A stretch of 64,000 bases of DNA from Candidatus Harrisonbacteria bacterium (GCA_023245035.1 JAHFLD010000001.1:719-64718), one strand, 5' to 3'. Shown: positions 1-64,000, numbered from the stretch's first letter. Notes: generated by a model from the letters alone, not told the origin. Translations and numbers: made by a program.

Positions 1-1136
1 TTATGGAGGTAATTGAATCTTCCATCGCTGCCGCCTATAAAAAAGAATACGAAAAGAAGAGCGAAATAATCAAAGCGAAGTTTGATCAAAAAACCGGCAG
101 CTTGAATTTTTGGCAGATAAAAACCGTAGTCACCGAAGACATGGTACGAATGGTTAGCGAAGACGAGGAAGAGCCATCCGCGCCAGTAAACGATGTCGGC
201 ATTGCCGAAGAAGAAAAACTGCCTCGATACAACCCCGACCGACACATCTTGCTTAATGAAGCAAAGAAAATAAAACCAGACGCGGCTCCCGGCGAGGAAA
301 TGCTATTCGCGCTGGAAACCCACGAGGATTTCGGCCGCATCGCGGCTCAAACCGCCAAACAAGTCATTCTGCAAAAACTACGAGAAGCGGAACGCGACTC
401 GGTACTCAAGGAATTTCAAAATCGCGAGGGTGAAATAGTAAGTGGCGTTGTCCAGCGATTTGACCAGGGCAACGTCTTTATCGATCTAGGACGCGCGAGC
501 GGAATTATGTTCTACAACGAGACCATTCCCGGAGAGCACTACCGCCCCGGCGAGCGACTCCGCTTCCTTATAGTCAGTATTCAAAATGAAACTAGAATCC
601 CGGGGATTATCTTGTCGCGATCCCATCCGCGCTTTATCGAAAAACTTTTCGCGCTAGAAGTGCCGGAAGTTTCCGATGGCATGATAGAGGTTAAATCCAT
701 CGCTCGCGAGCCGGGAAGCCGAACCAAAATCGCCGTCGTCTCCAAAAACAATATGGTAGACCCGGTAGGCTCCTGCGTTGGGCCGCGTGGCACTCGGGTT
801 ATGGCCGTCTCCAATGAAATCGGCCAAGAGAAAATTGACATCATTCCTTGGTCTGAAGAACCGACTGAATTTATCTCCAACGCCTTATCTCCGGCTAAAG
901 TAAAAGAAGTCAAAATTCTACCACACCGCGAAGCTCAAGTTTTCGTACCCGAAGATCAATTAAGTTTGGCTATCGGGCGCGGCGGCCAAAACGTGCGCCT
1001 CGCCGCCAAATTAACCGGTTGGAAGATTGACGTTCGCTCGGAAGCCCGACCCAACGAGATTAATATGGAAGGAATCGCTCAAACCGATCACCAACCGGAA
1101 TCACCCAAAGAAAAAGTCGTCAAAGATAACAAATAA
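1..1136 (+). CDS. nusA: Transcription termination/antitermination factor NusA, 5'-truncated by the window edge.
   Basis: S1 and KH-domain-like sequence ([10 protein letters not shown]...[15 protein letters not shown]) with a C-terminal acidic tail. The N-terminus aligns to an internal part of NusA, so the gene starts upstream of the window. Confidence 0.85.
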
Positions 1137-1143
1137 TAAGATT

Positions 1144-3126
1144 ATGACTTCATTATATACACTAATATTCGCGCCCATTGCCATCGCTGTTGCTTATAGT
1201 ATCGGTGTCATGTTTTGGTTAAAGAAAAAACCGCAGGGTAATGAAAAAATGCAAGAAATCTCGGCCGCCATCCTTCAAGGATCAAACGCCTACTTAGCTC
1301 GCCAAACCAAAGCCGTGAGCGTAGTGGCGATTGTCCTCGCAATCATACTCTGGTACGCACTCGGTCACATCGTCGCGCTTGGATTCATTATTGGCGCCAT
1401 CGCCTCGGGTATCGCCGGCTATATTGGGATGCAAGTCGCGGTTCGATCCAACGCCCGCACCGCCGCCAGCGCCGAACACGGCATGGGAACCGCTCTTAAC
1501 CTTGCTTTTAAAGCCGGATCGGTAACCGGATTCTTGGTTGTCGCCCTGGGATTGTTAGCTGTGGCCGGATTTTATCTGTGGACTGGAAGCATTGAGGCCT
1601 TAATTGGCTTGAGTTTTGGCGCCAGCTTAATTTCAATCTTCGCTCGTCTGGGCGGTGGTATCTTCACCAAGGCCGCCGATGTCGGCACCGACCTCGTTGG
1701 CAAGGTAGAAGCCGGAATTCCTGAAGATGATCCACGAAATCCAGGTGTTATCGCCGACAACGTCGGTGACAACGTTGGCGATTGCGCCGGTATGGCTGCC
1801 GATCTTTTTGAGACTTATGCCGTAACCTTGACTGCTGCCATCATCTTGGGAGCCGGTACCGTCACCGGTAGCCAAACCGTCTTCCCGCTCGTTTTGGGGA
1901 GTCTCGCTATCATCGCCTCACTCGTCGGCAGTCTGTTCGTAAAACTCGGCAAAAACAAGAAATCCATCATGGGCGCCCTCTATAAAGGGCTTATCGGCTC
2001 CATGGTCATCGCCACGGGACTCTTCTATTGGGCTGCAAAATTTTTCTTTGCCGATAAGTTCCAGCCGGTCTTCTGGAGCTCTGTCGTCGGACTCGTAGTT
2101 ACCGCACTCATGGTACTGATTACCGACTACTATACCGCCAAAAAATATCGTCCGGTAAAATCAATCGCCAAAGCCTCAAACTCCGGACATGGAACCAACA
2201 TTATTATGGGTCTCGCGGTCAGTTTGGAATCAACCGTTCTCCCAATATTGGTGATTGGCGGTGGAATTTTGGCGAGTTACTGGTTTATGGGTCTCTACGG
2301 CATCGCCATCGCCGCCACCTCCATGCTCTCGGTAGCCGGTATTATTGTTGCCATTGACTCCTTTGGCCCAATCACCGACAACGCCGGCGGTATCGCCGAG
2401 ATGTCCCAAGCCCCGCATTCGGTTCGAGTCATCACCGACGCTCTTGATGCCGTCGGCAACACCACCAAGGCGATTACCAAGGGTTATGCCATCGCCTCCG
2501 CCGGACTCGCGGCCCTAGTGCTTTTTGCGGGATATACGGAAAAATTAGCCAGCGGGCTTGGTGGTATCGCGCTTCGCTTTGATCTGGAAAATCCCTATGT
2601 CTTAGTGGGACTTTTCCTCGGTGGCGCCATCCCATACCTCTTCGGTTCCATTGCCATGCGTGCCGTTGGTGTAACCGCCGGAGCGGTAGTGGAAGAAGTT
2701 CGCCGGCAATTTCGGGAAATCAAAGGAATTTTGGAGGGAACCGCTAAACCGGATTACAGTCGAGCGGTTGATATCGTCACCAAGGCCGCTTTGCGAAAAA
2801 TGATCGTACCGGCAGTCTTTCCCATAGTCTGCGTCATCGCCGTGGGACTGCTCCTGGGTGCCGAAGCCCTGGGCGGACTCTTAATTGGCTCCATTATTTC
2901 CGGTCTCTTTATCGGCATCTCAATGACCACCGGTGGCGCCGCTTGGGACAACGCTAAAAAGTATATTGAAGAGGGAAACTATGGCGGCAAGGGATCCGAG
3001 GCTCACAAGGCCGCGGTTACCGGAGATACCGTTGGCGACCCCTACAAGGACACCGCCGGACCGGCCATCAATCCACTCATCAAAGTCATCAACATCGTCG
3101 CCTTGCTTTTGGTTCCGTTTTTGTAG
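1144..3126 (+). CDS. hppA: Membrane-bound proton- (or sodium-)translocating pyrophosphatase (H+-PPase).
   Basis: Polytopic membrane protein with the GGG(I/V)[16 protein letters not shown] and DNVGDNVGD(C/I)AGMAADLFE motifs diagnostic of V-type PPases. ATG at 1144 follows the nusA stop. Confidence 0.9.
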
Positions 3127-20412: not shown

Positions 20413-20415
20413 TCC

Positions 20416-30788: not shown

Positions 30789-31559
30789 ATGAAAAAACTG
30801 ATTGGAATTGCCATACTTCTCTCCTCGCTCGCGCTCGCCATTTTCATCCTGCGAGAAAATAAGCCCGTCGCCATAAACACCGAAGCGCAAACGCCATTCG
30901 AAACTCTGGCCTCAATTCCGGAAACTCTGCCCATAACTACAAAAATCGAAGCACCGGCCAAAGACGCGCTACCGGAAAAAAACATCACCCTTCAAGTCAG
31001 TCAGCAAATTGCCGAAGAGTTTTTGAAAAAAAATCCCAACGGCCCGGATCTGCTTTCCGGTGAAAATTTCGTGAACGCGATTGAACCGGAAAAATTGGTG
31101 GAAAATCTAGTTTCCGGCAAGCTTGGCGACGAAGCCCTGGCCGACTTCAATCCCGTTATTACCGCCACCGAATTAAACCTTATTCCCGCCAAAGATAAGG
31201 AGGCTTTGCGGGCCTATCTTGAAAAATTCAACGCCGTCATTCAAGACAACGCCGGCGGACTGAATGTTGATTTTTCCAATCCGACAGCCGAAGACTTTGA
31301 CCGCATCGTTCGTGTCGGTGAAAAAACCATCGCCGCCTTTTACGCCCTGCCAGTTCCACCACCCGTTATCAATATCCACAAAGAAGAACTGCGCTTGCTG
31401 ACCATCCAACGCAACATCTTCCGCAACATCAGCAACTACGCAAACGACCCGCTCCGCGCCTGGGTTTCTATTGAAATGTACCAACAAAATGAAAAGGAAT
31501 TCGCCGAATTAAAACAAAAAATCGCTGATTTCGTAAAAACCAACAACCTCGGCGTATGA
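30789..31559 (+). CDS. Hypothetical membrane-anchored protein.
   Basis: N-terminal transmembrane anchor; no recognised domain. Confidence 0.4.
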   Translation: MKKLIGIAILLSSLALAIFILRENKPVAINTEAQTPFETLASIPETLPITTKIEAPAKDALPEKNITLQVSQQIAEEFLKKNPNGPDLLSGENFVNAIEPEKLVENLVSGKLGDEALADFNPVITATELNLIPAKDKEALRAYLEKFNAVIQDNAGGLNVDFSNPTAEDFDRIVRVGEKTIAAFYALPVPPPVINIHKEELRLLTIQRNIFRNISNYANDPLRAWVSIEMYQQNEKEFAELKQKIADFVKTNNLGV

Positions 31560-33016: not shown

Positions 33017-33021
33017 ATAGT

Positions 33022-35148: not shown

Positions 35149-35154
35149 AAATCT

Positions 35155-35880
35155 ATGCCCGAAAACAGCCAACCACAAAACTCGTTTGAACGCCTGCCTT
35201 TTGGCATCCAACAGTTATTAACTTCGCCCCAAACCGTAGACGCCATAACCGAAATTAACGACTCGCGCGTCTCTCCGGAAAACGACGGCGTTATTCCGCG
35301 CCTTCTCCTGCGCTTGATGCTCAAAAAAATCTATCCGCAAAATTTCATCGCCGAGCTCCGCTCAAATCTCAATGTGGACGGCGAAACCGCGAGACTTATC
35401 GCGCGAGACCTGGTGAAATCCATTCTTGGCCCCGCCAAAGAAACCATCAAACGAGAGCTGGAAATTGACATTGGACTTATCGAACTCGGCGGCGAAGAAG
35501 CGATCCCCGACGCCGCTCTTTCTCCGGCTATCATCGCTCCCGAAGTCGCTAATCTGCCAAAATTCGCCCCAGAAACAAAAATACCAACAACCCCAATCGC
35601 CGAAATAACACCCACCCCAACAATCTACGACGGTGAGTCGCCACTCATCATCCACGAAGAAAAATCTCCGATTGTCGCCGGCGCCGAACCCGTCGTGCCA
35701 TCCTTTAACTACAAGCCCAAAGAAGAATCCTATTGGCGCTCCGCCGAACCAAAGCCCATCGCGGTTCGCGTCGAAACTCCCAAAAACGCCCTAGCCAATC
35801 CCGAACCAAAAAACCCTCGTCGGATCGTCCACTACAGCAATTTTAGAACACCCCTCAACGATGCGAACGATAAAAAATAA
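35155..35880 (+). CDS. Hypothetical Pro-rich protein.
   Basis: 241-aa ORF in operon context; no recognised domain. Confidence 0.35.
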   Translation: MPENSQPQNSFERLPFGIQQLLTSPQTVDAITEINDSRVSPENDGVIPRLLLRLMLKKIYPQNFIAELRSNLNVDGETARLIARDLVKSILGPAKETIKRELEIDIGLIELGGEEAIPDAALSPAIIAPEVANLPKFAPETKIPTTPIAEITPTPTIYDGESPLIIHEEKSPIVAGAEPVVPSFNYKPKEESYWRSAEPKPIAVRVETPKNALANPEPKNPRRIVHYSNFRTPLNDANDKK

Positions 35881-35883
35881 TTA

Positions 35884-36420
35884 GTGTCTCGCATCACCAC
35901 TATGCAATTCCAAGTCCCACAATTTATTGAGACCGAACCGAAAATCGTCGGCCCTTTGACGCTCAAGCAATTTGGCTTCATAGCTGTGGCTAGCATCGTG
36001 AGCTTCTTGTTGTTTTTTATCTTTGAAATCTGGCTTTGGCTGCTATTCACGGTCATCCTTGGTAGTATTGCCGCCGGTATGGCTTTTTTGAAATACGAAG
36101 GCCAACCCATGCCGCGCATTGTCGTGGCCGCCATCAGATACAAACTCTCGCCAAAACTTTACCTTTGGAAAAGCGACACTACCGCTCCCGGGTTGGCCAT
36201 GCCGCACATACCGGAAAATTTAATCCACAAGGGCAGGCGAACACCGCTTAAAGAACTTGCCGAAAAAATCGTCACCACTACCCACGCCATTGAAAAACGC
36301 GAGAAACCTCTGCACCCTTTTGATTTTTTGCACCTGCCAAACAAAATCCAAGAACGTTTTGAAGCGCTAAAAAAGACCACTGGTGAAAGAGAAATGGCTC
36401 GCCGCGTTGATTACCGCTAA
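35884..36420 (+). CDS. PrgI-family / VirB3-like small membrane protein.
   Basis: N-terminal (M)QFQVPQFIETEPKIVGPLTLKQF followed by two transmembrane helices, as in PrgI-family proteins that precede VirB4 in Gram-positive conjugation systems. Confidence 0.5.
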   Translation: MSRITTMQFQVPQFIETEPKIVGPLTLKQFGFIAVASIVSFLLFFIFEIWLWLLFTVILGSIAAGMAFLKYEGQPMPRIVVAAIRYKLSPKLYLWKSDTTAPGLAMPHIPENLIHKGRRTPLKELAEKIVTTTHAIEKREKPLHPFDFLHLPNKIQERFEALKKTTGEREMARRVDYR

Positions 36421-36470
36421 ACACCTCGTGGCACGGCCCGCCCGAACAAGATACAATTAAAGACAAACTC

Positions 36471-37157
36471 ATGGATGCTACCAATAAAACCCCAAACCCG
36501 GCTACCCAAGACTTCGTGGAAATCAAAGACGTCCGCCAGGGAGTGGTTATGTTAAAAAACGGGGGACTGCGCAAAATCGTCCTCGTTTCCGGCACCAACT
36601 TCGATCTAAAATCGGAGGAAGAACAGGGATTGATTTTAAGCGCCTTCCAAAATTTTTTAAACGGTTTGGATTTTAGTCTCCAGATTTTTATTCACTCCCG
36701 AAAACTCAACATTGAGCAATACTTGCAAAACCTTGGCCGGCGCTTGGAGCAAGAAACCAACGGTCTCCTCAAAAATCAAATTACCGAATATCGGGAATTT
36801 ATTCGAACCCTCGTGGCCGAAAACGCCATTATGAATAAAACCTATTTCGCGGTCATTCCTTACGACCCAATCCAAATCGCGGAAACCGGAAAAAAACTAG
36901 CCGGCAGCGTTTTGGGTCTTTTCAACAAAAAACCGGCGATCCCGGCAGACGATAGTCTAACCGAAGAAAAATTCTCCGAATATCTGGAACAGCTCAACCA
37001 GCGGGTGGAACAAGTGGTCAGCGGTCTTAACCAAGTTGGTTTGCGCGTAGTGCCTTTGGAGGGGGATGAGTTGACCGAACTTTTTTACAACCTCTACAAT
37101 CCCGGCGCCATCGAAAAAACCGACATCGAAACTTCCGCCATTAAAAAAACACCATGA
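36471..37157 (+). CDS. VirB4-family ATPase, N-terminal domain, encoded as a separate ORF.
   Basis: DFVEIKDVRQG...FDLKSEEEQ..ILSAFQNFLN...QI resembles the N-terminal domain of ConE/PrgJ-type VirB4. Stop overlaps the next ORF start (ATGA). Confidence 0.6.
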   Translation: MDATNKTPNPATQDFVEIKDVRQGVVMLKNGGLRKIVLVSGTNFDLKSEEEQGLILSAFQNFLNGLDFSLQIFIHSRKLNIEQYLQNLGRRLEQETNGLLKNQITEYREFIRTLVAENAIMNKTYFAVIPYDPIQIAETGKKLAGSVLGLFNKKPAIPADDSLTEEKFSEYLEQLNQRVEQVVSGLNQVGLRVVPLEGDELTELFYNLYNPGAIEKTDIETSAIKKTP

Positions 37158-38866
37158 ATGAAGCTGTCAAAAACTTAATCGCTCCACCGGCCATTGAAGC
37201 CGAATTTAATCACCTAAAACTCGGCGATGGTTTCGCTAAAACGATTTTTGTCTTTACCTATCCGCGATATTTGACCACCGGCTGGTTCTCACCACTCTTA
37301 AACTTGCCAAACTTGATTGATATCTCGCTCCACATCAACCCCATCGAAACTCCAATCGCGCTAAAAAATCTCCGCAAAAAAGCGGCTGAAGTTGAAGCTC
37401 AAATCAACGAAAACGAATCCAAGGGCTTGGTTCGCAATCCGATGCTGGAAACCGCTCTGCGCGATATCGAAAATCTGCGGGACACTCTCCAACAGGCCGA
37501 AGAAAACCTCTTTAGTCTCGGTGTCTACATCACACTCTATGCCCCTGATCTCAAGACGCTAAACAATCTGGAAGAGCAAATCCAGGGCTTGCTCGAATCG
37601 CGCCTGGTCTACGCCAAACCCGCCGTCTTCCGCCAACTTGAAGGATTCACCTCGGTCTTGCCGCTGGGCATCGACCGGCTTCAAATCAAGACCCCAATGA
37701 ACTCCAGTCCAATCTCCTCCTTCTTCCCCTTTGTCTCCATCAACTTAACCTCGGAAGAAGGCATCCTCTACGGCGTCAATCGGCACAACAATACCCTTAT
37801 CATCTTTGATCGTTTCTCTTTGGAGAACGCCAACATGGTGATTTTCGCCAAATCCGGCGCCGGCAAATCTTACACCACCAAGTTGGAAACTCTACGCAAC
37901 TTAATGCTTGGCGTGGACGTGATTATTGTTGATCCGGAAAATGAATACGAACGCCTCGCCGAAGCGGTAGGCGGAAGTTTCTTTCGTATCTCGCTGGCCT
38001 CTGATCACCACATCAACCCCTTTGAGATACCGGCGGTGCCCGAAGACGAAAGCCGCGGTGACGCCTTGAAATCACACATTGTCGTTCTTACCGGCCTGCT
38101 TAAAATCATGCTTGGAAAGATTACCGCCGAAGAGGATGCCTTGCTCGACCGCGCGATTACCGAGACTTACGCCTCGCGGGAAATTACTCCGGAAAAAGAT
38201 TTTTCTAAAATCCCGCCGCCGCTTTTGGAGGACTTGGAAGCAGTACTCGCCAACATGAACGGAGGACGGGGGATTGCCGAACGCCTTTACCGCTTCACCA
38301 AGGGCAGTTTTGGCGGCTTTTTGAACCAACCAACCAACGTGGAAAGTCGCAATCGCCTCGTCGTCTTCTCTATTCGCGACCTGGAAGAAGAACTTCGCCC
38401 GATTGCCATGTATATTATTCTGAATTACATCTGGAATATCGTTCGCTCCGAACTCAAAAAGCGAATTATGATTATTGATGAGGCCTGGTGGATGATGAAA
38501 CACGAAGACGGCGCCCTCTTCCTCTTTGGTCTCGTAAAACGCGCCCGCAAATACTTCTTGGGAGTAACTACGGTCACCCAAGACGTGGAAGATTTTCTGC
38601 AATCGCCTTACGGTCGCCCGATTATAACCAACTCGTCGCTCCAGCTTCTGCTCAAGCAATCGCCAGCCATGATTGATGTTGTCAGCAAGACCTTTAACCT
38701 AACCGAGGGCGAAAAAAGCCTTTTATTGGAATCCGATGTCGGCAATGGATTATTTTTTGCCGGACTCAACCGCGTGGCCATTCAAATCATCGCCTCTTAT
38801 TTGGAAGACGAGATAATCACCACCAATCCGGAACAAATCCTGGAACAGCGCGCCGCCGCCAAATAA
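37154..38866 (+). CDS. VirB4-family ATPase, C-terminal ATPase part.
   Basis: Walker A (FAKSGAGKSYTTK), IIVDPENEY, and Walker B (IMIIDEAWWMM). Confidence 0.8.
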   Translation: MNEAVKNLIAPPAIEAEFNHLKLGDGFAKTIFVFTYPRYLTTGWFSPLLNLPNLIDISLHINPIETPIALKNLRKKAAEVEAQINENESKGLVRNPMLETALRDIENLRDTLQQAEENLFSLGVYITLYAPDLKTLNNLEEQIQGLLESRLVYAKPAVFRQLEGFTSVLPLGIDRLQIKTPMNSSPISSFFPFVSINLTSEEGILYGVNRHNNTLIIFDRFSLENANMVIFAKSGAGKSYTTKLETLRNLMLGVDVIIVDPENEYERLAEAVGGSFFRISLASDHHINPFEIPAVPEDESRGDALKSHIVVLTGLLKIMLGKITAEEDALLDRAITETYASREITPEKDFSKIPPPLLEDLEAVLANMNGGRGIAERLYRFTKGSFGGFLNQPTNVESRNRLVVFSIRDLEEELRPIAMYIILNYIWNIVRSELKKRIMIIDEAWWMMKHEDGALFLFGLVKRARKYFLGVTTVTQDVEDFLQSPYGRPIITNSSLQLLLKQSPAMIDVVSKTFNLTEGEKSLLLESDVGNGLFFAGLNRVAIQIIASYLEDEIITTNPEQILEQRAAAK

Positions 38867-38869
38867 AAC

Positions 38870-39199
38870 ATGGAACCAAAAATCAGCGGAGTTGAGGCCA
38901 CACTGCTTATCATCGTCGCCGTTGTTGCCGATCTGATTGGCCTCATTCCCATCGTTAACATCATTGGTACCTTGATTAGTCTTGCCATAACCCAGGCCTA
39001 TTTTAGAATCAAAGGGGTCAAAGCCACCGCGAGCCTCGTCGCCCAGTTGATTGATTTAATCCCGGTCTTAAGCATCTTACCGGCAACCACAACCGGTGTC
39101 GCCATCGTCCTCTGGATCGACCGCCACCCAAAGGGTATTGCCGCCAAAACCACCAACCTTGCAAGCGCCATCAAAAAACCAACACCCACGCCTAAATAA
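38870..39199 (+). CDS. Small hypothetical membrane protein.
   Basis: 109 aa with two or three hydrophobic helices; directly follows VirB4. Confidence 0.35.
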   Translation: MEPKISGVEATLLIIVAVVADLIGLIPIVNIIGTLISLAITQAYFRIKGVKATASLVAQLIDLIPVLSILPATTTGVAIVLWIDRHPKGIAAKTTNLASAIKKPTPTPK

Positions 39200-39200
39200 T

Positions 39201-40058
39201 ATGAAATCTTTTGCAAAATATTCCATCATTTTTACCGCCTTAATAATAAGCATCACCCTGCGCCCTGCGCTCTCCTTGGCTCAAAACGCCAGCGATGCCA
39301 AACTCAACGTTCCAATTCCCGGCCTGGAAGACGTCAAAGTTGGCGTGAGTAACAGCACCGATAATTCCGGCAACAAGGCGCCCGATCTTGAGGGAATAAA
39401 AAAATATTTGAACGCGATCTACCGCTACGGCCTGGGCTTGGGAGCGCTAATGGCAATTCTGCGCATCGCCTATGCCGCCATTAAGTACTCAACCTCGGGA
39501 GGAAACAGCGGCTCTCAAGGCGAGGCGATGGAAATTATTAAAGACTCGCTGTGGGGGCTGGGATTGCTCTTACTCGCCACGCTTATTTTAAACGTCATCA
39601 ACCCCAAGGTTTTTACCCTGGACTCGGGTAGCGGAGGTAATGCGGGCTCTAGAAATAACTCGGGCAACACCAGCAACCAACCGCCGTCACCACCGCCAGC
39701 ACCACCCCTGCAAGCCGTTAGTGGCAGTCAAAGCGGACCAGTACCCACAGATTTCTCTGGTGCCCCAGGAAATCTAGTCAATGCGCCAGGCGTCGATCCA
39801 AATAAGTTTTATTTCTCTTGGAAAGACAACGCCAGTAATGAAACTAAATATGAAGTATATGAAATAACAGAAAATCCAACCGCCCCTTTGGGAATCTACG
39901 AAACAAAAATCGGAGAAGCTGGGCCTCAAAATGGGGGTAATGTTTTAGTTGGAACATCACTAACTAGCACCCCGGGAACAGCAAGAAGATTTGTCGTATA
40001 TGCTTACGGCCCAGATGGTCAAAGAGTAAATTCTCAACCACTCGAGATTAGCTACTAA
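39201..40058 (+). CDS. Putative pilin-like protein (VirB2/TrbC-like topology) with a C-terminal Pro-rich linker and a beta-rich extension.
   Basis: Signal peptide, then two hydrophobic helices separated by a short polar loop (AILRIAYAAIKYSTSGGNSG...GLGLLLLATLILNV), then PPSPPPAPP and an FN3-like tail. Low confidence. Confidence 0.3.
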   Translation: MKSFAKYSIIFTALIISITLRPALSLAQNASDAKLNVPIPGLEDVKVGVSNSTDNSGNKAPDLEGIKKYLNAIYRYGLGLGALMAILRIAYAAIKYSTSGGNSGSQGEAMEIIKDSLWGLGLLLLATLILNVINPKVFTLDSGSGGNAGSRNNSGNTSNQPPSPPPAPPLQAVSGSQSGPVPTDFSGAPGNLVNAPGVDPNKFYFSWKDNASNETKYEVYEITENPTAPLGIYETKIGEAGPQNGGNVLVGTSLTSTPGTARRFVVYAYGPDGQRVNSQPLEISY

Positions 40059-41823: not shown

Positions 41824-43197
41824 ATGGAGTTCGACCAACTATGGCAGTCGGCTCTTGGAGAAATAGAACTCCAAGTTTCGCGCCCAAATTTTGTGACCTG
41901 GTTTAAAAATAGCAAGCTCATCGACAAAAAAGAGGGGACGGCGCTTATTGGTCTGCCCAACAACTTTGCCAAAGAGTGGGTGGAGAACAAATACAACAAG
42001 GTAATCCTTGGGACCTTGCGTGGCATGGATGACAGCACTAAAAAAGTGGAATTTGTCGTCTACAACGAGCGTACCGCTCAAAAACCGACCATCAAATCCG
42101 GAACTAAAGTTGCTATCAATAAAAACGATGATTTTGGCCAGCTATCTTTTAGTGAGTTTAAAGTTGATCAAGTCACCAATCTAAATTCTAAATACACCCT
42201 AAGCTCCTATGTTGTCGGCAAAAGCAACGAGATGGCCTACGCGGCGGCCATGGCGGTAATTGATTCGGTGGGAAACAAATACAACCCCTTATTTATCTAC
42301 GGCGGAGTCGGCTTGGGCAAAACCCATCTTATGCAAGGCATGGGTAATGAGGTAGCTCTAAAATACGGGGGCAAAATCAGAGTGAAATACGTCTCTTCGG
42401 AAAAATTCACCAACGACGTCGTTTGGGCTATTAGAAACAAGCGCATGGAAACAGTTAAAGAAAAATATCGCCTCATTGATATGTTGATTATCGACGACAT
42501 TCAATTCATTGCCGGCAAACCCAGCACCGAAGAAGAATTTTTTCACACCTTTAACGCCCTCCATGAAAACAACAAGCAAATTATCATCTCCTCCGATCGC
42601 CCGCCAAAGTTCATTCCAACCCTCGAGGAGCGCCTCCGCTCGCGTTTTGAGGGTGGAATGGTGGTTGACATCGGGGTACCCGATTACGAACTGCGCTTGG
42701 CTATTATTCGATCCAAGCTCCAAGACAAAAAGGCTGTTTTAAGCGATGAGATCATTGACTTAGTAGCCAACAAGATTCAAAAAAACTTCCGTGAAGTTGA
42801 GGGTATCATCAATAAAATACTCTTCTACCAAAGCCGAAAAAATGGCGAGATAACCGCTAAAAACGTTGAGGAAATTATTAGCGAATCCAGTCAGGAACCC
42901 ACCAAAAACATCAACCCTAACCTGATTATTAAAGCCGTAGCTGAATTCTCCGAAATAGCGCCATTGGACCTGCTCAACAAATCTCGCAAAAAAGAAGTGG
43001 CCGAAGCCCGACAAATCCTGATGTATCTTCTGCGGGAGATGCTTCAGCTATCCTATCCTCACATAGGCCGAAGAATCGGCAAACGCGATCATACCACCGC
43101 CATTTATGCTTATGAAAAAATTGCCAGGGAAATCCAAAAAAATCCGGCCCTTAACCAAAAAATTCTTATTATCAAAGAATTAATCAGCAAGGGTTAG
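41824..43197 (+). CDS. dnaA: Chromosomal replication initiator DnaA.
   Basis: AAA+ Walker A (GGVGLGKTHL), sensor motifs, and a C-terminal DNA-binding helix-turn-helix. Confidence 0.92.
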   Translation: MEFDQLWQSALGEIELQVSRPNFVTWFKNSKLIDKKEGTALIGLPNNFAKEWVENKYNKVILGTLRGMDDSTKKVEFVVYNERTAQKPTIKSGTKVAINKNDDFGQLSFSEFKVDQVTNLNSKYTLSSYVVGKSNEMAYAAAMAVIDSVGNKYNPLFIYGGVGLGKTHLMQGMGNEVALKYGGKIRVKYVSSEKFTNDVVWAIRNKRMETVKEKYRLIDMLIIDDIQFIAGKPSTEEEFFHTFNALHENNKQIIISSDRPPKFIPTLEERLRSRFEGGMVVDIGVPDYELRLAIIRSKLQDKKAVLSDEIIDLVANKIQKNFREVEGIINKILFYQSRKNGEITAKNVEEIISESSQEPTKNINPNLIIKAVAEFSEIAPLDLLNKSRKKEVAEARQILMYLLREMLQLSYPHIGRRIGKRDHTTAIYAYEKIAREIQKNPALNQKILIIKELISKG

Positions 43198-43411
43198 TGG
43201 TGTGAATAACCGGTTAAGAAAGACTTGATATTTTGTGGAAATAAAAATTAAATTTAAAAAATAGAAACTTCTAAACACCCTAATCAACAATTCAACCGAA
43301 GTTTTGCACAATCAAAAAAAATTAAAATAAAAAAATAACCCTTATAGATTAAGTCTTAAATAAAGATTAAACTAACTTATCCACTTTTCCCCAGTTACTA
43401 CTACTACTGCT
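43198..43411. promoter_or_regulatory. dnaA-dnaN intergenic region: AT-rich with DnaA boxes (candidate oriC / DNA-unwinding element).
   Basis: TGTGAATAA (43201), TGTGGAAAT (43234), TTATCCACT (43377), and long A/T tracts. Confidence 0.55.
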
Positions 43412-44527
43412 ATGAATCTAATCATATTAAAAGATAATCTAAGAGAAGGGCTTAACACTCTTGAAAGAGCCGTGGCGGAAAGTAATACTCTGCCGATTCT
43501 CAAAAATATTTTAATTCAAACCGAAGCCGGAAAAGTTAAACTCTCGGCTACTAATTTGGAAATCGGAGTAACTAACCTTTTATTCGGAAAAATATCCGAA
43601 GAGGGAAGTGTTACGGTTCCCTTTCAGGCCTTGTATAGCATTATTGTGAATAGCGACACCGAAAGAATTAACTTAATTTCTTCAGGAACAACCCTAATAG
43701 TTAAAGGTGAAAATTACGAAGCCAAAATTCAAGGATTAAATCCGGAAGAGTTCCCAATAATTCCCAAAATAAACAATGAAACCAATAGTATTGAAATCGA
43801 TCCTGGTTCGTTTAAATCGGGCTTAAGTGATGTTTCTATCGCCGCTCACATCTCCGAGATCCGCCCGGAGATAAGCGGCATTCTCTTTGATTTTCAGATT
43901 GGTATTATAAAATTAGTAGCTACTGATAGTTTTCGTCTCGCCGAAAAAACCATTGATCACACTAAATTCAAAACCAATTTTAACCAAGGTTTTAAAACAA
44001 TTATTCCTCTTAAAACCATTCAAGAGATAATGCGGATTTTCAGCGACACCAAGCCGATTAAAATATATTTTGATAATCACCAAATACTCATAAAAAACGA
44101 AACCACCGAGCTGATTTCGCGAATTATTGAGGGGAATTATCCGGATTACGAACAAATTATTCCAAAAAACATCGAAACCGAAATTACCGTTAAAAGAGAG
44201 AATCTGGTTAACGCCTTAAAACTAGTCAGCACTTTCTCTAGTAAAACCAATGATGTTCGCCTTAAAATCACCGAAAATAGTAAGGCGATGGAATTGTATT
44301 CCATAAATCAAAGCCTTGGTGAAAATAATTATCTAATACCAATTAAAAGCAAGGGAGCGGATAATAAAAGCCTTAGCTTTAACTGGCGTTACTTATTAGA
44401 CGGCTTGAAAGCTATTAAAACCGAAGATATCTTTTTCGGCATTAACAGTAACAACCGCCCGGCGCTTCTAAAGTCACCCGAGAGCCGCGATTATTTCTAT
44501 ATTTTAATGCCAATCAAGGGAGATTAA
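43412..44527 (+). CDS. dnaN: DNA polymerase III beta sliding clamp.
   Basis: Three-domain clamp about 370 aa long with the conserved N-terminal region; directly downstream of dnaA. Confidence 0.9.
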   Translation: MNLIILKDNLREGLNTLERAVAESNTLPILKNILIQTEAGKVKLSATNLEIGVTNLLFGKISEEGSVTVPFQALYSIIVNSDTERINLISSGTTLIVKGENYEAKIQGLNPEEFPIIPKINNETNSIEIDPGSFKSGLSDVSIAAHISEIRPEISGILFDFQIGIIKLVATDSFRLAEKTIDHTKFKTNFNQGFKTIIPLKTIQEIMRIFSDTKPIKIYFDNHQILIKNETTELISRIIEGNYPDYEQIIPKNIETEITVKRENLVNALKLVSTFSSKTNDVRLKITENSKAMELYSINQSLGENNYLIPIKSKGADNKSLSFNWRYLLDGLKAIKTEDIFFGINSNNRPALLKSPESRDYFYILMPIKGD

Positions 44528-58497: not shown

Positions 58498-60189
58498 ATG
58501 CTTAGCAAAATCCAAAAACTGGTAGCCGAAGCGGTTGGTAGGGAAATCAGCCCCGTAATTCAAGTCTCGGCCGAAGAAAAATTTGGCGACTACACCACCC
58601 CCGTGGCTCTTTCGCTCGCAAAAACCATTAAGCGCCCACCGCTCGAAATCGCCGAAGAAATCGCGGCCAAACTCCGCGCCGCGCCGGGGAGTAACCAATT
58701 TAAAAAAATAGAAGTCACCGCGCCCGGTTTTATAAATTTTCACCTCTCCGATCAAGCGCTTGAATCCGCGCTTGCCGAAATCACCAAGTCCGGCGCCAAA
58801 TGGGGGAGGCCAGAAACCAAAACGCGAGCCACGGTGATCATTGATTATTCTTCGCCGAACATCGCCAAACCGATGAGCGTCGGCCACCTTCGCTCCACGA
58901 TTATCGGCGCCGCGCTATATAACATCTTTAAATTCTCCGGCTGGAAGACCATCGGTGACAACCATCTGGGAGATTGGGGTCGGCAATTCGGCATCCTCAT
59001 CGCCGCCTGGAAGGATTGGCAAAAAATAAACGGCGAAAAAAGAGAGGTCGTAATCAACGACCTCATGCGGCTCTACGTTGATTACAACGCGCTCATGAAA
59101 GAGGACGCCAAACTCGAAGAACGCGCTCGCCTCGAAACCAAAAAACTCCAGGATGGCGACTTGGAAAACACCAAACTCTGGAAGCGATTCTACAAAATTA
59201 GCTTGGCGGAGTTTCAAAAGATCTACGCGCTCCTTGGAATAAAATTCGACCACTCCTACGGCGAGAGCCACTACCAAAAAATGCTCGGAACCATTGTCTC
59301 CGACGCCGTCCAAAAGGGCGTAGCGGTGCGAAGCGAAGGCGCGGTGATTATTCCGGTGCCCGGCAAGGCGCCCTTGGTTATCCAAAAGAGCGACGAAGCC
59401 TTTCTTTACGGCACCACCGACATCGCGACCGTGAAACAACGGGTAACAAGGTGGAAGCCGAGCCTTATCTTGTACGTCATTGGCAACGAACAAGCCTTGC
59501 ATCTCGAGCAACTGTTTTACGCCGTCAAACAATTGGGTTTAATCTCTAAGCAGAAGCTGGCCCACGTAAAATTCGGTCTCATCTTGGGCGAGGATCTAAA
59601 AAAACTCTCCACCCGCGCCGGCAAACACATCGCCTTAGACGAGGTTATTTACGAGGCAATCGAACGAGCCAAAAAAGTCACGAGCGGCAAGAGGCCGGAT
59701 CTGTCGCCTGGCGAACACGACAAAATCGCCAAGGTCGTCGGCATCGCCGCCTTAAAATACAATGATCTTTCGCAAAATCGCCAAAGCGACATCGCCTTTC
59801 ATTGGGACAAAATGCTCAACCTGGAGGGCAACAGCGCGCCTTATATTATGTACACCTATGCCCGGCTCAAAAGCGTTCTCCGCAAAGCCGGCTTCCCGCG
59901 AAAAGCCAATTTTTCCCTGCTCAACCAAGACAGCGAGCGCGCGCTGATTAAAAAACTGATTCAATTCCCCGATGTCATAACCGGCGTGCTTCAAACCTAT
60001 TTCCCACACCAACTTGCCGACTACTTATACGAGCTCACCAAACTGGCCAATTATTTTTATCAAACCGAACCGATTCTCCAAGCCGAGCCGGCGGTTATGA
60101 ACGCCCGACTAAAACTAATTTCCGCCGCCGCCCAAACCATCAAAACCAGTCTCGCGCTCCTGGGCATCTCAGCGCTGGAAAAAATGTAA
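58498..60189 (+). CDS. argS: Arginyl-tRNA synthetase.
   Basis: P(N/S)IAKPMSVGHLRSTIIG (HIGH-type), the anticodon-binding C-terminal domain, and a terminal (K)M signature. Confidence 0.9.
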   Translation: MLSKIQKLVAEAVGREISPVIQVSAEEKFGDYTTPVALSLAKTIKRPPLEIAEEIAAKLRAAPGSNQFKKIEVTAPGFINFHLSDQALESALAEITKSGAKWGRPETKTRATVIIDYSSPNIAKPMSVGHLRSTIIGAALYNIFKFSGWKTIGDNHLGDWGRQFGILIAAWKDWQKINGEKREVVINDLMRLYVDYNALMKEDAKLEERARLETKKLQDGDLENTKLWKRFYKISLAEFQKIYALLGIKFDHSYGESHYQKMLGTIVSDAVQKGVAVRSEGAVIIPVPGKAPLVIQKSDEAFLYGTTDIATVKQRVTRWKPSLILYVIGNEQALHLEQLFYAVKQLGLISKQKLAHVKFGLILGEDLKKLSTRAGKHIALDEVIYEAIERAKKVTSGKRPDLSPGEHDKIAKVVGIAALKYNDLSQNRQSDIAFHWDKMLNLEGNSAPYIMYTYARLKSVLRKAGFPRKANFSLLNQDSERALIKKLIQFPDVITGVLQTYFPHQLADYLYELTKLANYFYQTEPILQAEPAVMNARLKLISAAAQTIKTSLALLGISALEKM

Positions 60190-60273: not shown

Positions 60274-60579
60274 GTGCCCAATGCTCCATCTGATGTTGTG
60301 AAGCGCTTCCTAGAAATCGTCTTTCATGATGTTGCGCCCTGCCCGAGTTGCCAGTCCGATCTCGGCATAATCGAACGCTACTGCCCAAAGTGTGGCCAAC
60401 TCAATGCAAGATTTGACCCAAAGAAATTCAAAAAGGATTGGGGAATGACTATTAAACAATCCTTACGTTGTTGCCCCTTTGAACATGCAGGAACCCGCCG
60501 AGAAGCTGAAAGAGACAAGAGGCCGTTAAGAGACGCCTTCTGTATAATCTGCGGCGAGAAAGCCTACGCCCCAAGATGA
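60274..60579 (+). CDS. Hypothetical double zinc-ribbon protein, paralog 1 (GTG start).
   Basis: AAAGGAGAG RBS 7 nt from GTG. Pattern CPSC...CPKCG..N.RFD..KF.K.(W/F)G....CPFEH....CIICG. Confidence 0.5.
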   Translation: MPNAPSDVVKRFLEIVFHDVAPCPSCQSDLGIIERYCPKCGQLNARFDPKKFKKDWGMTIKQSLRCCPFEHAGTRREAERDKRPLRDAFCIICGEKAYAPR

Positions 60580-60586
60580 ATCGCTC

Positions 60587-60620
60587 ATCACCGGAACCAA
60601 AAGTTTCGGTGATTTTTTTT
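60587..60620 (+). terminator. Rho-independent terminator.
   Basis: ATCACCG-loop-CGGTGAT followed by TTTTTTTT. Confidence 0.8.
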
Positions 60621-60736
60621 GGGAATTAATGCGCGCGGAGATCGCCCGCCCGCGCTCTCTTGACAAGGCAGGGTTAAATAGATTATCCTCAAACCGCTGT
60701 TTGAAAATCAAAAACCATCCAACCAAGGAGCATTTT

Positions 60737-61021
60737 GTGCCCAGAAAAAATATCGAGGATCTTCTAGGGGTGCCTCATCTGGCCGAGGTCGCGACCTGTT
60801 CCTGTGGCGTCAAGCTTAGAAAGCCAGAGGCCCATTGCCAGAATTGCGGCGATGCGAATCCGCGGTTTGACCGGGTCTCTTTCGAAAAGACCTTCGGTGA
60901 ATCCCTGGAGGCGGCGAAGGCAAGCTGTCCGACCGAGCACGTTGCTCGCAAAACTGATCTCATCCGGGAAAACAAATCCGGACGAGTCTACTGCCCGATT
61001 TGCGGGACGAGGATTATTTAG
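60737..61021 (+). CDS. Hypothetical double zinc-ribbon protein, paralog 2 (GTG start).
   Basis: AAGGAG RBS 6 nt from a GTG-CCC start, as in paralog 1. Shares the CxC...CxNCG..NPRFD..F.K.FG....CPTEH....CPICG pattern. The track ORF from 60629 is an upstream extension. Confidence 0.5.
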   Translation: MPRKNIEDLLGVPHLAEVATCSCGVKLRKPEAHCQNCGDANPRFDRVSFEKTFGESLEAAKASCPTEHVARKTDLIRENKSGRVYCPICGTRII

Positions 61022-61094: not shown

Positions 61095-64000
61095 ATGCGT
61101 TTTGATTTGAACGATAAGACCCCCGCTCAACTGGAAGAGGAGGTTTTGGAGCTTTGGCGCTCCAAGAAAATCTTTGAGCGAATCCAAAAAAAACGCGAAG
61201 GCCAAACCCCTTTTCGTTTTTTTGAAGGTCCGCCGACCGCCAATGGTCGTCCGGGAATTCACCATGTTCTGGCCCGCGCCTTCAAAGACGCGGTACTTCG
61301 CTATCAAACCATGCGGGGCAAATATGTCCTGCGCCGCGCCGGCTGGGACACTCACGGCTTACCCGTGGAAATTGAGGTGGAAAAAGAACTGGGCATCAAA
61401 AGCAAACCCGAAATTGAAAAATACGGCATCGCCAAGTTCAACGCCAAAGCCAAAGAATCGGTTTGGCAGTACAAAACCGAATGGGAAAAACTAACCGAAC
61501 GCGTCGGTTTTTGGCTGGATTTCAAGCATCCCTACGTAACCTACGAAACCGACTACATAGAATCGGTCTGGTGGGTGATTAGCGAGGTGGAGAAGCGAGG
61601 CCTCCTGGAAAAGGGTCATCGAGTGGTGCCCTGGTGTCCGCGTTGCGAAACTTCGCTCTCCAGTCACGAGTTGGCTCAACCTGGCGCCTACAGAACCACT
61701 AAAGACCCCTCGCTTTACCTCAAGCTTCCGCTTGTCGGCGAAAAAAATACCAGCCTTCTTGTTTGGACAACCACCCCTTGGACCCTGCCGGGAAATATGG
61801 CCGTCGCGGTCAATCCCGATCTCCTCTATACAAAATTTAAATCAGGGGATGAATTTTTTTGGGCCTACAAAATGCCAGAGATTCTTGCCTCGGTGAGCGA
61901 GGGACAAGCTCCTCGCGAAGTTTTGGCCACCAAAGAAACCAAAAAAGGGCACGAGCTCTTGGGTAAAAAATACGAGCCGCTTTTTGCGGACAAAAAAGTA
62001 AAAACACCGCAACTCTACTCGGTTCTCGCGGGAGATTTTGTTTCAACCGAGGACGGCACGGGACTGGTTCACATCGCCCCCGCCTTCGGTGAGGAAGATT
62101 TAAAACTTTGGCGTGCCGCGCATAATGGCGAACGAACCGAAATCATAGTCAACGTGGACGGCGAAGGCCGTATGGGCGAGGGCTTTCCCGGCGCCGGTCA
62201 ATTTATCAAAAAAGCCGACGAGGCGATTCTCCAAAATCTCGCCGAGCGAGGCTTGGTCTACGAGCGTACGACCCTCGAACACGAATATCCTTTTTGCTGG
62301 AGATGCTCCTCGCCGCTCATCTATTTCGCCCGTGATTCGTGGTTCATAAAAATGAGCTCGCTTCGCAATGAGCTAGTAAAAGAAAATCAGAGCATCAACT
62401 GGGTGCCAAGCCACGTTAAAGAAGGCCGCTTCGGCGAGTGGCTTAAAGACGTCAAAGATTGGTCGCTGTCCCGCGAACGCTACTGGGGAACTCCGCTGCC
62501 GGTTTGGGAATGCGCCTCATGCGCCGCGCGCCGCGTGGTCGGAGCCGTGGATGAATTAAGCAAATTTGGTTCGGCTAAAAATACCTTCTATGCCATCCGT
62601 CACGGCGAGGCCGACCACATCATCCAAGGAGTTACCGCCAGCTGGCCGGAGGCAAAAAAGATCTCTCATCTTACCGTAAAAGGCCGTGAGCAAGTCGCGG
62701 ACTCCGCCAAAAAACTCTTGTCCAAAAAAATAGATCTCATCGTTTGCTCGCCAATGGCCCGCGCCAAAGAAACCGCGGAAATTATTCACCAAGCAACCCG
62801 CGTCCCCGTCGTCTACGATGAGCGTCTGGCGGACATTAACTGCGGAATTTTTGACGGCCAATCCATAGATAGCTATCGCGCCTTTTTCCAAGATGCGGAG
62901 AATCGCCTTAACACCGCCCCGCCCGGCGGAGAATCTCCCGCCCAGGTTCGAGTGCGTATGGCGCAAGTTCTGCAATCTCTGCAGAAAGAACACGCGGGCA
63001 AACGCATCCTAATCGTTAGCCACGACGATCCGCTTCGTATGCTCCGCGCGAGCATCAAGCGTCTGCCCGAAGAAAAAATCTTAAAACAAAAGAGTCTAAA
63101 GCTCGGCGAGGTCATCTCCCTTGGTCGCGCCTACCTTCCGTTCAACGCCAAAGGCGAAGTTGACCTTCACAAGCCCTTCATCGACGAAATAATTTTGCGC
63201 TGTACTGTCTGTAAAAAAGGTGAGATGCGCCGAGTCAAAGAAGTTATGGATGTCTGGCTGGATTCGGGATGCGTGCCCTTCGCCGAGTGGCACTATCCTT
63301 TTGAAAACAAGGAGCAAATTGAAGAGGGTCGGCATTTTCCGGCGGACTATATTGTGGAAGGCATGGATCAAACCCGCGGCTGGTTCTACACCATGCTCGC
63401 GGTCTCGGTACTACTCGGTCGGGGCGCGCCCTACAAAAATGTCATTTCCTTAGGCTTGGTTTTGGATAAAAACGGCCAGAAAATGTCTAAGTCCAAAGGC
63501 AACGCGGTTGACCCTTGGGAGATAATTAAAAAATACGGCGCCGATACCATCCGCTGGTTCTTTTTTTCGGTCGGCGATCCCGGCGAACCGAAAAAATTCA
63601 ACGAGACCGAACTGGCTACGGTTTACCGCAAAGTTTTTTTGATCGTCTGGAACTCCTTCTTGTTTTTAAAAACCTATCAGGCGAACGAAAAGACCGGCTC
63701 TCCTAACAAGATTCTGGATGCCTGGATTCAGGCCAGAATGGCCGAGACCGAACAAAAAACACGCCAAGCCATGGACGCGTTCGATTTGCGAACGGCGGTT
63801 TTAGCCATTGAAATCTTCATTGACGATCTTTCCCGCTGGTATATCCGCCGCTCGCGGCGAAATCTCTCGGTGCCGGTTTTAACCGAGGCCTTGCTTACGC
63901 TGTCGCGCCTTCTGGCGCCATTCGCCCCCTTCTTTGCCGAGGCTCTGTTTCAAGGCCTCAAAAAAATCGCCTCCGACAAAAATGCGGAAATTTTGAAAGC
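61095..64000 (+). CDS. ileS: Isoleucyl-tRNA synthetase (3'-truncated by the window edge) carrying an inserted histidine-phosphatase-like domain.
   Basis: PTANGRPGIHHVLAR (HIGH-type), WCPRCETSL, the CP1 region, WECASC, KMSKSKGN. Hand translation from 61095 is a continuous open frame through 62577-63125, which encodes RHGE...SPMARAKETA...SHDDPLR. Not in the ORF track because no stop falls within the window. Confidence 0.88.
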   Translation, partial: MRFDLNDKTPAQLEEEVLELWRSKKIFERIQKKREGQTPFRFFEGPPTANGRPGIHHVLARAFKDAVLRYQTMRGKYVLRRAGWDTHGLPVEIEVEKELGIKSKPEIEKYGIAKFNAKAKESVWQYKTEWEKLTERVGFWLDFKHPYVTYETDYIESVWWVISEVEKRGLLEKGHRVVPWCPRCETSLSSHELAQPGAYRTTKDPSLYLKLPLVGEKNTSLLVWTTTPWTLPGNMAVAVNPDLLYTKFKSGDEFFWAYKMPEILASVSEGQAPREVLATKETKKGHELLGKKYEPLFADKKVKTPQLYSVLAGDFVSTEDGTGLVHIAPAFGEEDLKLWRAAHNGERTEIIVNVDGEGRMGEGFPGAGQFIKKADEAILQNLAERGLVYERTTLEHEYPFCWRCSSPLIYFARDSWFIKMSSLRNELVKENQSINWVPSHVKEGRFGEWLKDVKDWSLSRERYWGTPLPVWECASCAARRVVGAVDELSKFGSAKNTFYAIRHGEADHIIQGVTASWPEAKKISHLTVKGREQVADSAKKLLSKKIDLIVCSPMARAKETAEIIHQATRVPVVYDERLADINCGIFDGQSIDSYRAFFQDAENRLNTAPPGGESPAQVRVRMAQVLQSLQKEHAGKRILIVSHDDPLRMLRASIKRLPEEKILKQKSLKLGEVISLGRAYLPFNAKGEVDLHKPFIDEIILRCTVCKKGEMRRVKEVMDVWLDSGCVPFAEWHYPFENKEQIEEGRHFPADYIVEGMDQTRGWFYTMLAVSVLLGRGAPYKNVISLGLVLDKNGQKMSKSKGNAVDPWEIIKKYGADTIRWFFFSVGDPGEPKKFNETELATVYRKVFLIVWNSFLFLKTYQANEKTGSPNKILDAWIQARMAETEQKTRQAMDAFDLRTAVLAIEIFIDDLSRWYIRRSRRNLSVPVLTEALLTLSRLLAPFAPFFAEALFQGLKKIASDKNAEILK

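Follow-up and report, generated by a model that had tools for sequence, protein, structure and literature searches.

Why should an aminoacyl-tRNA synthetase carry a phosphatase inside its catalytic domain, and on what would that phosphatase act? These questions are raised by ileS, the last gene in a 64,000-nucleotide stretch of DNA from a Candidatus Harrisonbacteria bacterium (GCA_023245035.1, JAHFLD010000001.1:719-64718), which we refer to as the window. A reading made from the sequence alone (the sequence-only reading) had proposed that the isoleucyl-tRNA synthetase (IleRS) encoded there contains an in-frame histidine phosphatase domain. We find that the frame is open through such a domain, that the domain belongs to a conserved phosphatase family tied to ileS, and that inorganic pyrophosphate (PPi) is its possible substrate, a proposal that we make tentatively.

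The ileS frame runs through a phosphatase domain

Translation from the ATG at 61095 on the plus strand gave a frame of 968 codons, free of stops as far as the window's end. The window edge cuts the gene, and about 180 C-terminal amino acids lie outside it; the full-length relative P0001 has 1149 aa. The product scored 813.3 bits against the NCBIfam ileS model TIGR00392 (cutoff, 621.4 bits) in two stretches, one on either side of an extra segment. Pfam analysis likewise split tRNA-synt_1 in two stretches (E=2.9e-118) with His_Phos_1 (PF00300) between the halves, and it also recognized Anticodon_1. Motifs of class I synthetases and of the connective peptide 1 (CP1) editing domain of IleRS were found (KMSKS, WTTTPWT, and GTG.VH.AP). 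The HIGH signature takes the form GIHH in this IleRS clade (61254-61265, plus strand), and only its last His (H57) is invariant among 121 sequences. The features of the gene that define the host enzyme and the insert are listed here.

61095..64000, plus strand: ileS, type-2 isoleucyl-tRNA synthetase (open frame; TIGR00392, 813 bits; structures 8c8v and 1ile)
62511..62522, plus strand: first Cys pair, C473 and C476, of the zinc knuckle split by the insert (C473 kept in 108/121 sequences, C476 in 97/121)
62565..63161, plus strand: inserted segment, phosphatase domain with short linkers, aa 491-689 (alignment to the insert-less IleRS of L003, L004, and L005)
63201..63212, plus strand: second Cys pair, C703 and C706, of the zinc-knuckle module (invariant, 121/121)
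63480..63494, plus strand: KMSKS loop, aa 796-800, the ATP/PPi-binding signature of class I synthetases (from the sequence)

Alignment to the insert-less IleRS of related genomes defined an extra segment of 198 aa (nt 62565-63161), and the span first proposed for it, 62577-63125 (aa 495-677), falls inside these boundaries. Insert-less relatives have about 12 residues at this position ('...SSIKELEKLSSKKITDLHKHFVD...'), in agreement with the short linker that had been expected of canonical IleS. The insert is located in the second half of the Rossmann fold, between the two Cys pairs, following the 'RERYWGTPLPVW' strand and preceding DVWLDSG, about 100 residues upstream of KMSKS. All of the motifs quoted by the sequence-only reading were present, namely, WECASC (aa 471-476), AIRHGEADH (aa 500-508), SPMARAKETAEII (aa 552-564), VSHDDPLRML (aa 641-650), DLHKPFIDE (aa 690-698), and KMSKS.

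A structural model of the full 968 aa had a predicted local distance difference test score (pLDDT) of 92.5 and a predicted template modeling score (pTM) of 0.90, with confident junctions. Its synthetase part superposed on Priestia megaterium IleRS2 (8C8V) and Thermus thermophilus IleRS (1ILE) (35-37% identity; TM-score, 0.86 normalized to 1ILE), and for this reason the host fold is predicted to be undisturbed by the insert. The window IleRS has KMSKS, the CP1 editing motifs, and the CxxC...CxxC knuckle in common with these two enzymes and differs from both in its GIHH motif. Type-2 IleRS enzymes are mupirocin resistant and eukaryote-like, and in all IleRS structures that have been solved the knuckle loop is free of any added domain. 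A bacterial IleRS with another added catalytic domain is covered by the model ileS_w_GNAT (NF040702), in which the domain is an N-acetyltransferase and thus differs in fold from the phosphatase; the window protein scored 269.8 bits against a cutoff of 1999 and is not a member.

A sequencing or assembly artifact or a frameshift was rejected: the frame is open, a 90%-identical gene has the same uninterrupted structure in two independent assemblies, and the domain is found in all of the 120 best homologues. An intein or recent mobile insertion, which the sequence-only reading had also discounted, was examined by four features: a Hint or homing-endonuclease domain, Cys/Ser/Thr at position +1, His-Asn at the C-terminal junction, and foreign base composition. 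It was rejected, since there was no Hint or homing-endonuclease Pfam match, the junctions (SKF/GSAK and GEV/DLHK) are without intein residues, and the GC and GC3 (third codon position) values of the insert, 0.534 and 0.588, equal those of the rest of ileS. An antisense open reading frame (ORF) of 145 aa (62556-62993, minus strand) lies wholly inside the phosphatase-coding segment and is almost certainly spurious, because the sense frame is strongly conserved.

The insert is a branch-1 histidine phosphatase

PF00300 recognized the domain with 120.6 bits (E=8.7e-35) in the whole protein and 124.1 bits in the insert alone, well above the gathering threshold of 21.7. An AlphaFold model of aa 477-712, made with 121 sequences, had a mean pLDDT of 95.2. 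Foldseek comparison of the insert model gave a probability of 1.00 to PhoE, Rv2419c, PspA, CobC, and cofactor-dependent phosphoglycerate mutases (dPGMs), and the best structural matches were Rv2419c, PhoE, PspA, CobC, and HFP. The profile models for CobC, dPGM, SixA, and PspA all scored far below their cutoffs. CobC (TIGR03162) gave 85.5-89.9 bits (cutoff, 162.9), the Rv2228c-type model NF005567 gave 82-85 bits (cutoff, 326), and SixA gave a weak match of 33.5 bits (cutoff, 74.5); the insert is a member of none of these. It is therefore a PhoE/CobC-like branch-1 histidine phosphatase that lies outside every characterized family.

The domain had been described as PGAM-like. The phosphatase fold in that description stands, and the mutase does not: the domain is of the phosphatase type, and a moonlighting glycolytic dPGM was rejected on a TIGR01258 score of 27.9 bits (cutoff, 81.7) and on the scores of the other dPGM models, which were far below their cutoffs. 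The contig of the closest relative encodes a separate cofactor-independent phosphoglycerate mutase (iPGM), which also speaks against a dPGM role. No meaningful match to the phosphatase domain was obtained with the PADLOC defense models.

Among solved structures the best sequence match (E=4.6e-17), and a top structural match, was PhoE (YhfR) of Geobacillus stearothermophilus (PDB 1EBB and 1H2E). PhoE and the insert share the RHG...R...E...H catalytic layout and are of similar size. PhoE, unlike the insert, is free-standing; it has a Trp in RHGETxWN where the insert has H508 and THG where the insert has SH(G/D)D, and its C-terminal tail is missing from the insert. The highest-scoring curated families were CobC, an alpha-ribazole-5'-phosphate phosphatase, and the CobC-like domain of the RNase H/acid phosphatase Rv2228c. 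The latter provides a precedent for such a phosphatase fused to a nucleic acid enzyme, but these proteins are free-standing or terminal fusions, whereas the insert is internal. The domain and its catalytic positions are listed below, with conservation given for the 121 IleRS sequences.

62589..63086, plus strand: His_Phos_1 (PF00300) domain, aa 499-664 (Pfam, AlphaFold model, and Foldseek)
62598..62606, plus strand: RHG motif, R502-H503-G504, with H503 the predicted phospho-accepting nucleophile (R and H invariant, 121/121)
62760..62762, plus strand: R556, second arginine of the phosphate pocket, in the SPxxR motif (invariant, 121/121)
62832..62834, plus strand: D580, at the general-acid Glu position (E in 118/121; D in 3/121, namely, the window, P0001, and one other)
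63021..63023, plus strand: H643, second active-site His, in VSHDD (family consensus, SHGD; H invariant in 121/121, with the next residue changed from G to D in the window)

R502, H503, R556, E613, and H643 were invariant in 121/121 IleRS sequences, as were T527, S552, and G584. The Asp at the general-acid position is a chemically plausible substitute for Glu. Because the catalytic residues are strictly conserved, the insert is very probably an active phosphatase.

The domain is conserved in the IleRS of many Patescibacteria

PF00300 was present in 120/120 of the best database IleRS matches, which were 49-90% identical to the window IleRS, so the domain is not special to this genome. Named sources among these 120 were Parcubacteria, Harrisonbacteria, Liptonbacteria, Minisyncoccota, and Paceibacterota. 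In the 121-sequence alignment the segment from Cys pair to Cys pair was always 226-242 aa long, and mean pairwise identity was 0.49 for the phosphatase domain versus 0.70 for the Rossmann halves. Comparison with the 90%-identical gene of L001 gave a ratio of nonsynonymous to synonymous substitution rates (dN/dS) of 0.16 for the insert and 0.06-0.07 for the core. These substitution patterns indicate that the insert is under purifying selection. A degenerate structural domain was rejected for the IleRS copies, given the invariant catalytic residues and the dN/dS value of the insert. As judged from the sequences, in a large block of the Patescibacteria IleRS normally has a phosphatase insert.

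This architecture is present in public protein sets, where it is annotated generically, for example, as 'class I tRNA ligase family protein'. Many TPA_asm bins with a Paceibacteria-type IleRS-phosphatase (L008, L013, L016, L056, L080, and others) are titled 'uncultured Candidatus Saccharibacteria' or 'Gammaproteobacteria', which look like generic or wrong labels.

A free-standing form is linked to ileS

The insert by itself, used as the query of an exhaustive search, retrieved 1208 proteins at E<=1e-10. The best 150 of these 1208 comprised domain-bearing IleRS, about 55 free-standing proteins of 170-215 aa, and some odd architectures. When a profile of the non-IleRS copies was used, the best 120 matches all were free Patescibacterial proteins of about 190 aa. 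The GTDB, at one genome per species, was scanned with a 7-sequence alignment, giving at least 472 confirmed matches, for which 80 loci were listed. Among these 80 listed loci, the domain was embedded in IleRS at the window's site in 69, was encoded by a free gene directly upstream of ileS in 10, and was elsewhere in 1; free and embedded forms occurred together in 0/80.

In L003 and L005 the gene order is SmpB, ArgRS (arginyl-tRNA synthetase), phosphatase, and IleRS, and the phosphatase gene overlaps an insert-less ileS (962-975 aa) by 4 nt. The gap between argS and the phosphatase gene is 3 nt in L003, and in L004 the phosphatase gene lies 1.6 kb upstream of ileS. The window has the following genes in this region.

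58498..60189, plus strand: argS (ArgRS, 563 aa), the upstream member of a conserved smpB-argS-(phosphatase)-ileS order (ORF; order kept in L001, L003, L005, and most of L006-L085)
60274..61021, plus strand: two Cys-rich small ORFs, 60274-60579 and 60629-61021 (no Pfam match; mutually paralogous)

The Cys-rich ORFs have the pattern CPxC..C..CG..CP.EH..C.ICG, and the argS-ileS gap in which they lie is the place of the free phosphatase gene in other lineages. In L001, the 90%-identical relative, one paralogous Cys-rich ORF of 93 aa is found at the same place (9642-9923).

A neighbor-joining tree of the IleRS cores interleaved the free and embedded types, and monophyly of the free type was recovered in 0/50 bootstraps, with poor resolution. 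In some pairs of one free and one embedded type, the IleRS cores were 63-66% identical. The free or embedded state probably has changed more than once. A single ancient insertion event, which would separate free and embedded forms into clean clades, was unsupported, as the poorly resolved core tree interleaves both states; the domain tree was uninformative for counting insertions, with identities of about 40-45% throughout. Taken as a whole, the sequences describe a Patescibacteria-specific phosphatase family tied to ileS, which is embedded in most lineages and is a gene of about 190 aa in some.

The domain occurs at other sites and with other partners

Direct reading of the sequences placed the domain at four different points in IleRS. 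Besides the main site, where P0150, P0172, and P0219 have tandem pairs, it follows the second Cys pair in P0143, stands after 'HYPF' and before 'FPA[DE][YF]IAEG' in P0247, P0210, P0256, and the second copy of P0143, and recurs as a second copy about 70 residues past KMSKS in P0182 and P0256. These rare IleRS variants, with other sites or tandem copies, reach 1468 aa. Outside IleRS the domain was fused to the C terminus of ArgRS (P0160), to the C terminus of TsaC/Sua5 in two separate clusters (P0185 and P0270), to a QueC-like PP-loop ATPase (P0236), and to a PUA_2-ATP sulfurylase (P0144), and several of the non-IleRS fusions recur in independent assemblies. In L090 (3116-7179) a TsaC-phosphatase fusion gene comes directly after an insert-less ileS, which it overlaps by 1 nt, and an HD-domain CCA-adding enzyme and a tRNA-guanine transglycosylase (TGT) are encoded nearby.

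Valyl-tRNA synthetase (ValRS) is also a carrier. Four phosphatase copies were found in ValRS P0130, and when P0130 was used as a query, 70/120 of the best ValRS matches (P0394-P0511) had 1-4 copies; the named ones belong to Gracilibacteria and Peregrinibacteria. Most of the copies are flanked by 'SRQxxWG' and 'DxWFxS'; this loop is homologous to the insertion site in the window IleRS. The R-H-R core was kept in 82-83/84 ValRS copies and the full catalytic set in 58/84, and an apparently degraded subgroup (e.g., P0419, P0420, P0422, P0432, and P0434) has lost the second His and the general acid. In Nomurabacteria the IleRS has the domain (L049 and L070) and the listed ValRS, P0498, is without it. 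There is thus apparently one carrier synthetase per lineage, IleRS in the Paceibacteria type and ValRS in Gracilibacteria and Peregrinibacteria.

The ATP sulfurylase fusion is part of a distinct subgroup of phosphatases found in glycan-sulfation clusters (L089, 8001-10536; L087, 3113-4565; L088, 2951-5198). In this subgroup the fusion gene is followed by a sulfotransferase gene, and free members overlap a gene for a 3'-phosphoadenosine 5'-phosphosulfate (PAPS)-type sulfotransferase or adjoin a sulfatase gene. Neither adenosine 5'-phosphosulfate (APS) kinase nor CysQ was seen in the flanks of the sulfation-cluster loci.

A tethered pyrophosphate hydrolase is proposed

The distribution of the domain suggests that it probably is functionally coupled to class Ia synthetases or adenylating enzymes. 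Because the attachment points vary, a free form exists, tandem arrays occur, and each lineage apparently has one carrier, no fixed geometry appears to be needed and a small, diffusible substrate is favored; we consider such a substrate likely, with somewhat less assurance than the coupling. As to its identity, every fusion partner (IleRS, ValRS, ArgRS, TsaC, the QueC-like PP-loop ATPase, and ATP sulfurylase) attacks the alpha-phosphate of ATP and releases PPi, and it is this common chemistry that points to PPi; the PP-loop chemistry has been described (PMC13376578). The case for PPi in particular falls somewhat short of an even chance. Our best overall explanation, which is itself tentative, is a tethered small-molecule phosphohydrolase with PPi as its committed substrate.

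In the proposed mechanism, the domain would strip the terminal phosphoryl group off the by-product of ATP-dependent adenylation. PPi, held by R502, R556, and H643, would be attacked by H503, the leaving phosphate would be protonated by D580, and the phospho-histidine would then be hydrolyzed by water. The outcome would be that Ile-AMP formation is pulled forward and pyrophosphorolysis is limited, and tandem arrays would raise the dose. In a more radical variant, the phospho-enzyme would transfer the phosphoryl group that it takes from PPi to an acceptor (AMP, for example), so that the two products of aminoacylation would both be recycled.

Two known systems offer partial precedents. ATP sulfurylase is naturally fused to inorganic pyrophosphatase (PPase) in stramenopiles and haptophytes, where the fusion pulls an unfavorable equilibrium (PMC2275785). 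The logic there is the one proposed here, an adenylyl-transferase that releases PPi and, attached to it, an enzyme whose proposed role is PPi removal, but those fusions use a canonical family I PPase, whereas PPase activity of a histidine phosphatase domain is our hypothesis. The branch-2 histidine phosphatases that act on inositol pyrophosphates (PP-InsP) cleave phosphoanhydrides via a phospho-histidine intermediate (PMC13573052). These domains, in PPIP5K/Vip1/Asp1, belong to the same superfamily and sit in bifunctional proteins; they are eukaryotic branch-2 domains (PF00328) with inositol pyrophosphates as substrates, while the insert is of branch 1. No Pfam match to soluble PPases of family I (PF00719) or family II (DHH/DHHA2) was found in the window IleRS, and the domain would work like a soluble PPase by analogy and not by family membership. 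It is possible, and we put it forward with due reserve, that the family represents a new kind of soluble PPase, with a phospho-histidine and a branch-1 fold, wired into Patescibacterial adenylate-forming enzymes.

Several points weigh against PPi hydrolysis. We know of no branch-1 histidine phosphatase that hydrolyzes inorganic PPi, and nothing in the domain sequence is diagnostic of PPi binding. The window copy, like P0001, differs from the consensus of the family by N509I, E580D, and G644D, all at second-shell positions. In the ValRS copies, 26/84 are without an aligned full catalytic set, 8 of them with H643 changed to N, and these losses hint at a role that survives the loss of catalysis. 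The fusions to ArgRS and TsaC may be simple fusions of neighboring genes, the ATP sulfurylase fusion may be uninformative for the IleRS subgroup, and a 3'-phosphoadenosine 5'-phosphate (PAP, or pAp) 3'-phosphatase role fits the sulfation subgroup at least as well. Tethering would bring little kinetic gain for a fast-diffusing ion. Finally, the window encodes a PPase of another kind.

1027..3126, plus strand: membrane H+-translocating pyrophosphatase, beside nusA (PF03030, 862.8 bits)

With this enzyme present the domain is not needed as the sole PPase, and the idea that it is the only pyrophosphatase of the cell was rejected. A soluble PPase also would dissipate PPi that could be converted to proton-motive force. 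Family I Ppa was not found in 1.04 Mb of Patescibacterial DNA, a sample biased to ileS neighborhoods that gives little power, and a literature search on Patescibacterial soluble PPases found nothing.

Alternative explanations

Two alternatives keep the domain catalytic and change its substrate. The domain could be an adenine-nucleotide phosphomonoesterase, with AMP or substrates of the pAp or 3'-AMP type, that relieves product inhibition or feeds nucleoside salvage. The nearest curated models are CobC, whose substrate is a nucleoside-5'-phosphate analogue, and the CobC-like Rv2228c; PhoE-type enzymes are broad in specificity; the conserved aromatics of the cap region (F586 and the FF pair at 598-599) would suit a nucleobase; and every partner pathway eventually yields AMP. 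However, ATP sulfurylase and TsaC release no AMP themselves, as established enzymology shows, and hydrolysis of AMP would be wasteful in organisms that are generally thought to depend on nucleotide salvage. A pAp phosphatase fits the sulfation-cluster subgroup, yet no connection of pAp with IleRS or ValRS is known, and we judge this explanation unlikely. pAp also resembles a 3'-phosphorylated A76, which would tie the same subgroup to the other alternative, healing of the tRNA 3' end in cis, in which a 2'- or 3'-phosphate or a toxin-added pyrophosphate is taken off A76 to enable aminoacylation. The HD domain of the Escherichia coli CCA-adding enzyme has phosphatase and cyclic phosphodiesterase activity, and toxSAS enzymes pyrophosphorylate the CCA end of tRNA. 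The partners are mostly tRNA centered (IleRS, ValRS, ArgRS, TsaC, and the QueC-like protein), L090 places the TsaC-phosphatase gene with ileS, an HD-domain CCA-adding enzyme, and TGT, and the main insertion loop lies within the catalytic domain of both IleRS and ValRS. A single bound acceptor end is nevertheless hard to reconcile with attachment after KMSKS, at the ArgRS C terminus beside the anticodon-binding DALR domain, in tandem, or not at all; all tRNAs would need healing, yet one synthetase per lineage has the domain, and ATP sulfurylase is a misfit as a partner. We regard end healing as quite unlikely.

Other explanations dispense with a substrate related to the host reaction. A housekeeping phosphatase of the argS-ileS operon could have been fused or inserted repeatedly in streamlined genomes for coexpression only. 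The free gene directly adjoins argS and ileS, the ArgRS and TsaC fusions are then fusions of neighbors, the interleaved states on the IleRS core tree and the absence of free-type monophyly agree with repeated change, and the geometry shows no fixed pattern. However, an in-frame insertion into an internal loop, as seen at four sites of IleRS, is more than a simple read-through fusion, and ValRS acquired the domain independently in the homologous loop in other lineages. The adjacency to ileS moreover is maintained between IleRS cores with no more than 35-50% identity, and the partners that are not neighbors also are all adenylate-forming enzymes, so that passive hitchhiking likewise has a low probability in our estimate. 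Lastly, the domain could be a protein phosphatase or regulatory module that dephosphorylates IleRS or a partner, for example, to reverse inhibition by a kinase toxin, or that senses a phosphorylated ligand. The superfamily includes SixA, PGAM5, and Sts, and there is the weak SixA match; the cap region is compact; and the ValRS copies retained without the second His or general acid would suit binding or sensing. Against this, sequence and structure are nearest to small-molecule phosphatases, every IleRS copy strictly keeps the catalytic set, and no kinase was seen in the neighborhoods examined, which makes this explanation very improbable. The sequence-only reading had left the function open among a nucleotide, a tRNA-related substrate, and a regulatory role; that choice has been narrowed, and PPi hydrolysis by a tethered domain is the explanation that we tentatively prefer.

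Other features of the window

Elsewhere in the window, the block at 30789-40058 (plus strand) consists mostly of unannotatable ORFs together with PrgI-like, VirB4/TraG-like ATPase, and type IV secretion system (T4SS) pilin-like proteins, and it resembles a type IV secretion (or conjugation-like) apparatus. At 41824-44527 (plus strand) dnaA is followed by dnaN; this order suggests that the chromosomal replication origin probably lies just upstream, at about 41.2-41.8 kb. Two starch/glycogen-synthase-like glycosyltransferases around a GH57 enzyme (18874-23363, plus strand) form a small alpha-glucan metabolism cluster. A HIT-family protein (7487-7942, plus strand) is encoded beside tRNA-Pro and tRNA-Arg (7323-7469) in a translation-rich region. 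Among the substrates of HIT hydrolases are AMP-linked compounds, aminoacyl-adenylates included, and by analogy with this chemistry the window HIT protein may be another adenylate-handling enzyme.

Significance of the fusion

A literature search did not turn up any account of a histidine phosphatase fused to a synthetase, in line with what the sequence-only reading had supposed. Both components, IleRS and the branch-1 histidine phosphatase fold, are known; what is new is their conserved, recurrent arrangement. Few enzymes have been studied as thoroughly as the aminoacyl-tRNA synthetases, and it is rare for a bacterial one to have an additional catalytic domain within its Rossmann fold. Automatic annotation passes over the phosphatase domain. 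The free, embedded, and multicopy variants constitute a natural experiment in domain insertion. If its substrates are tRNA ends or nucleotides, the domain would represent a new quality-control step. If it removes PPi, it would represent a new class of pyrophosphatase, and these ultra-small cells would be coupling the handling of an energy by-product to translation.

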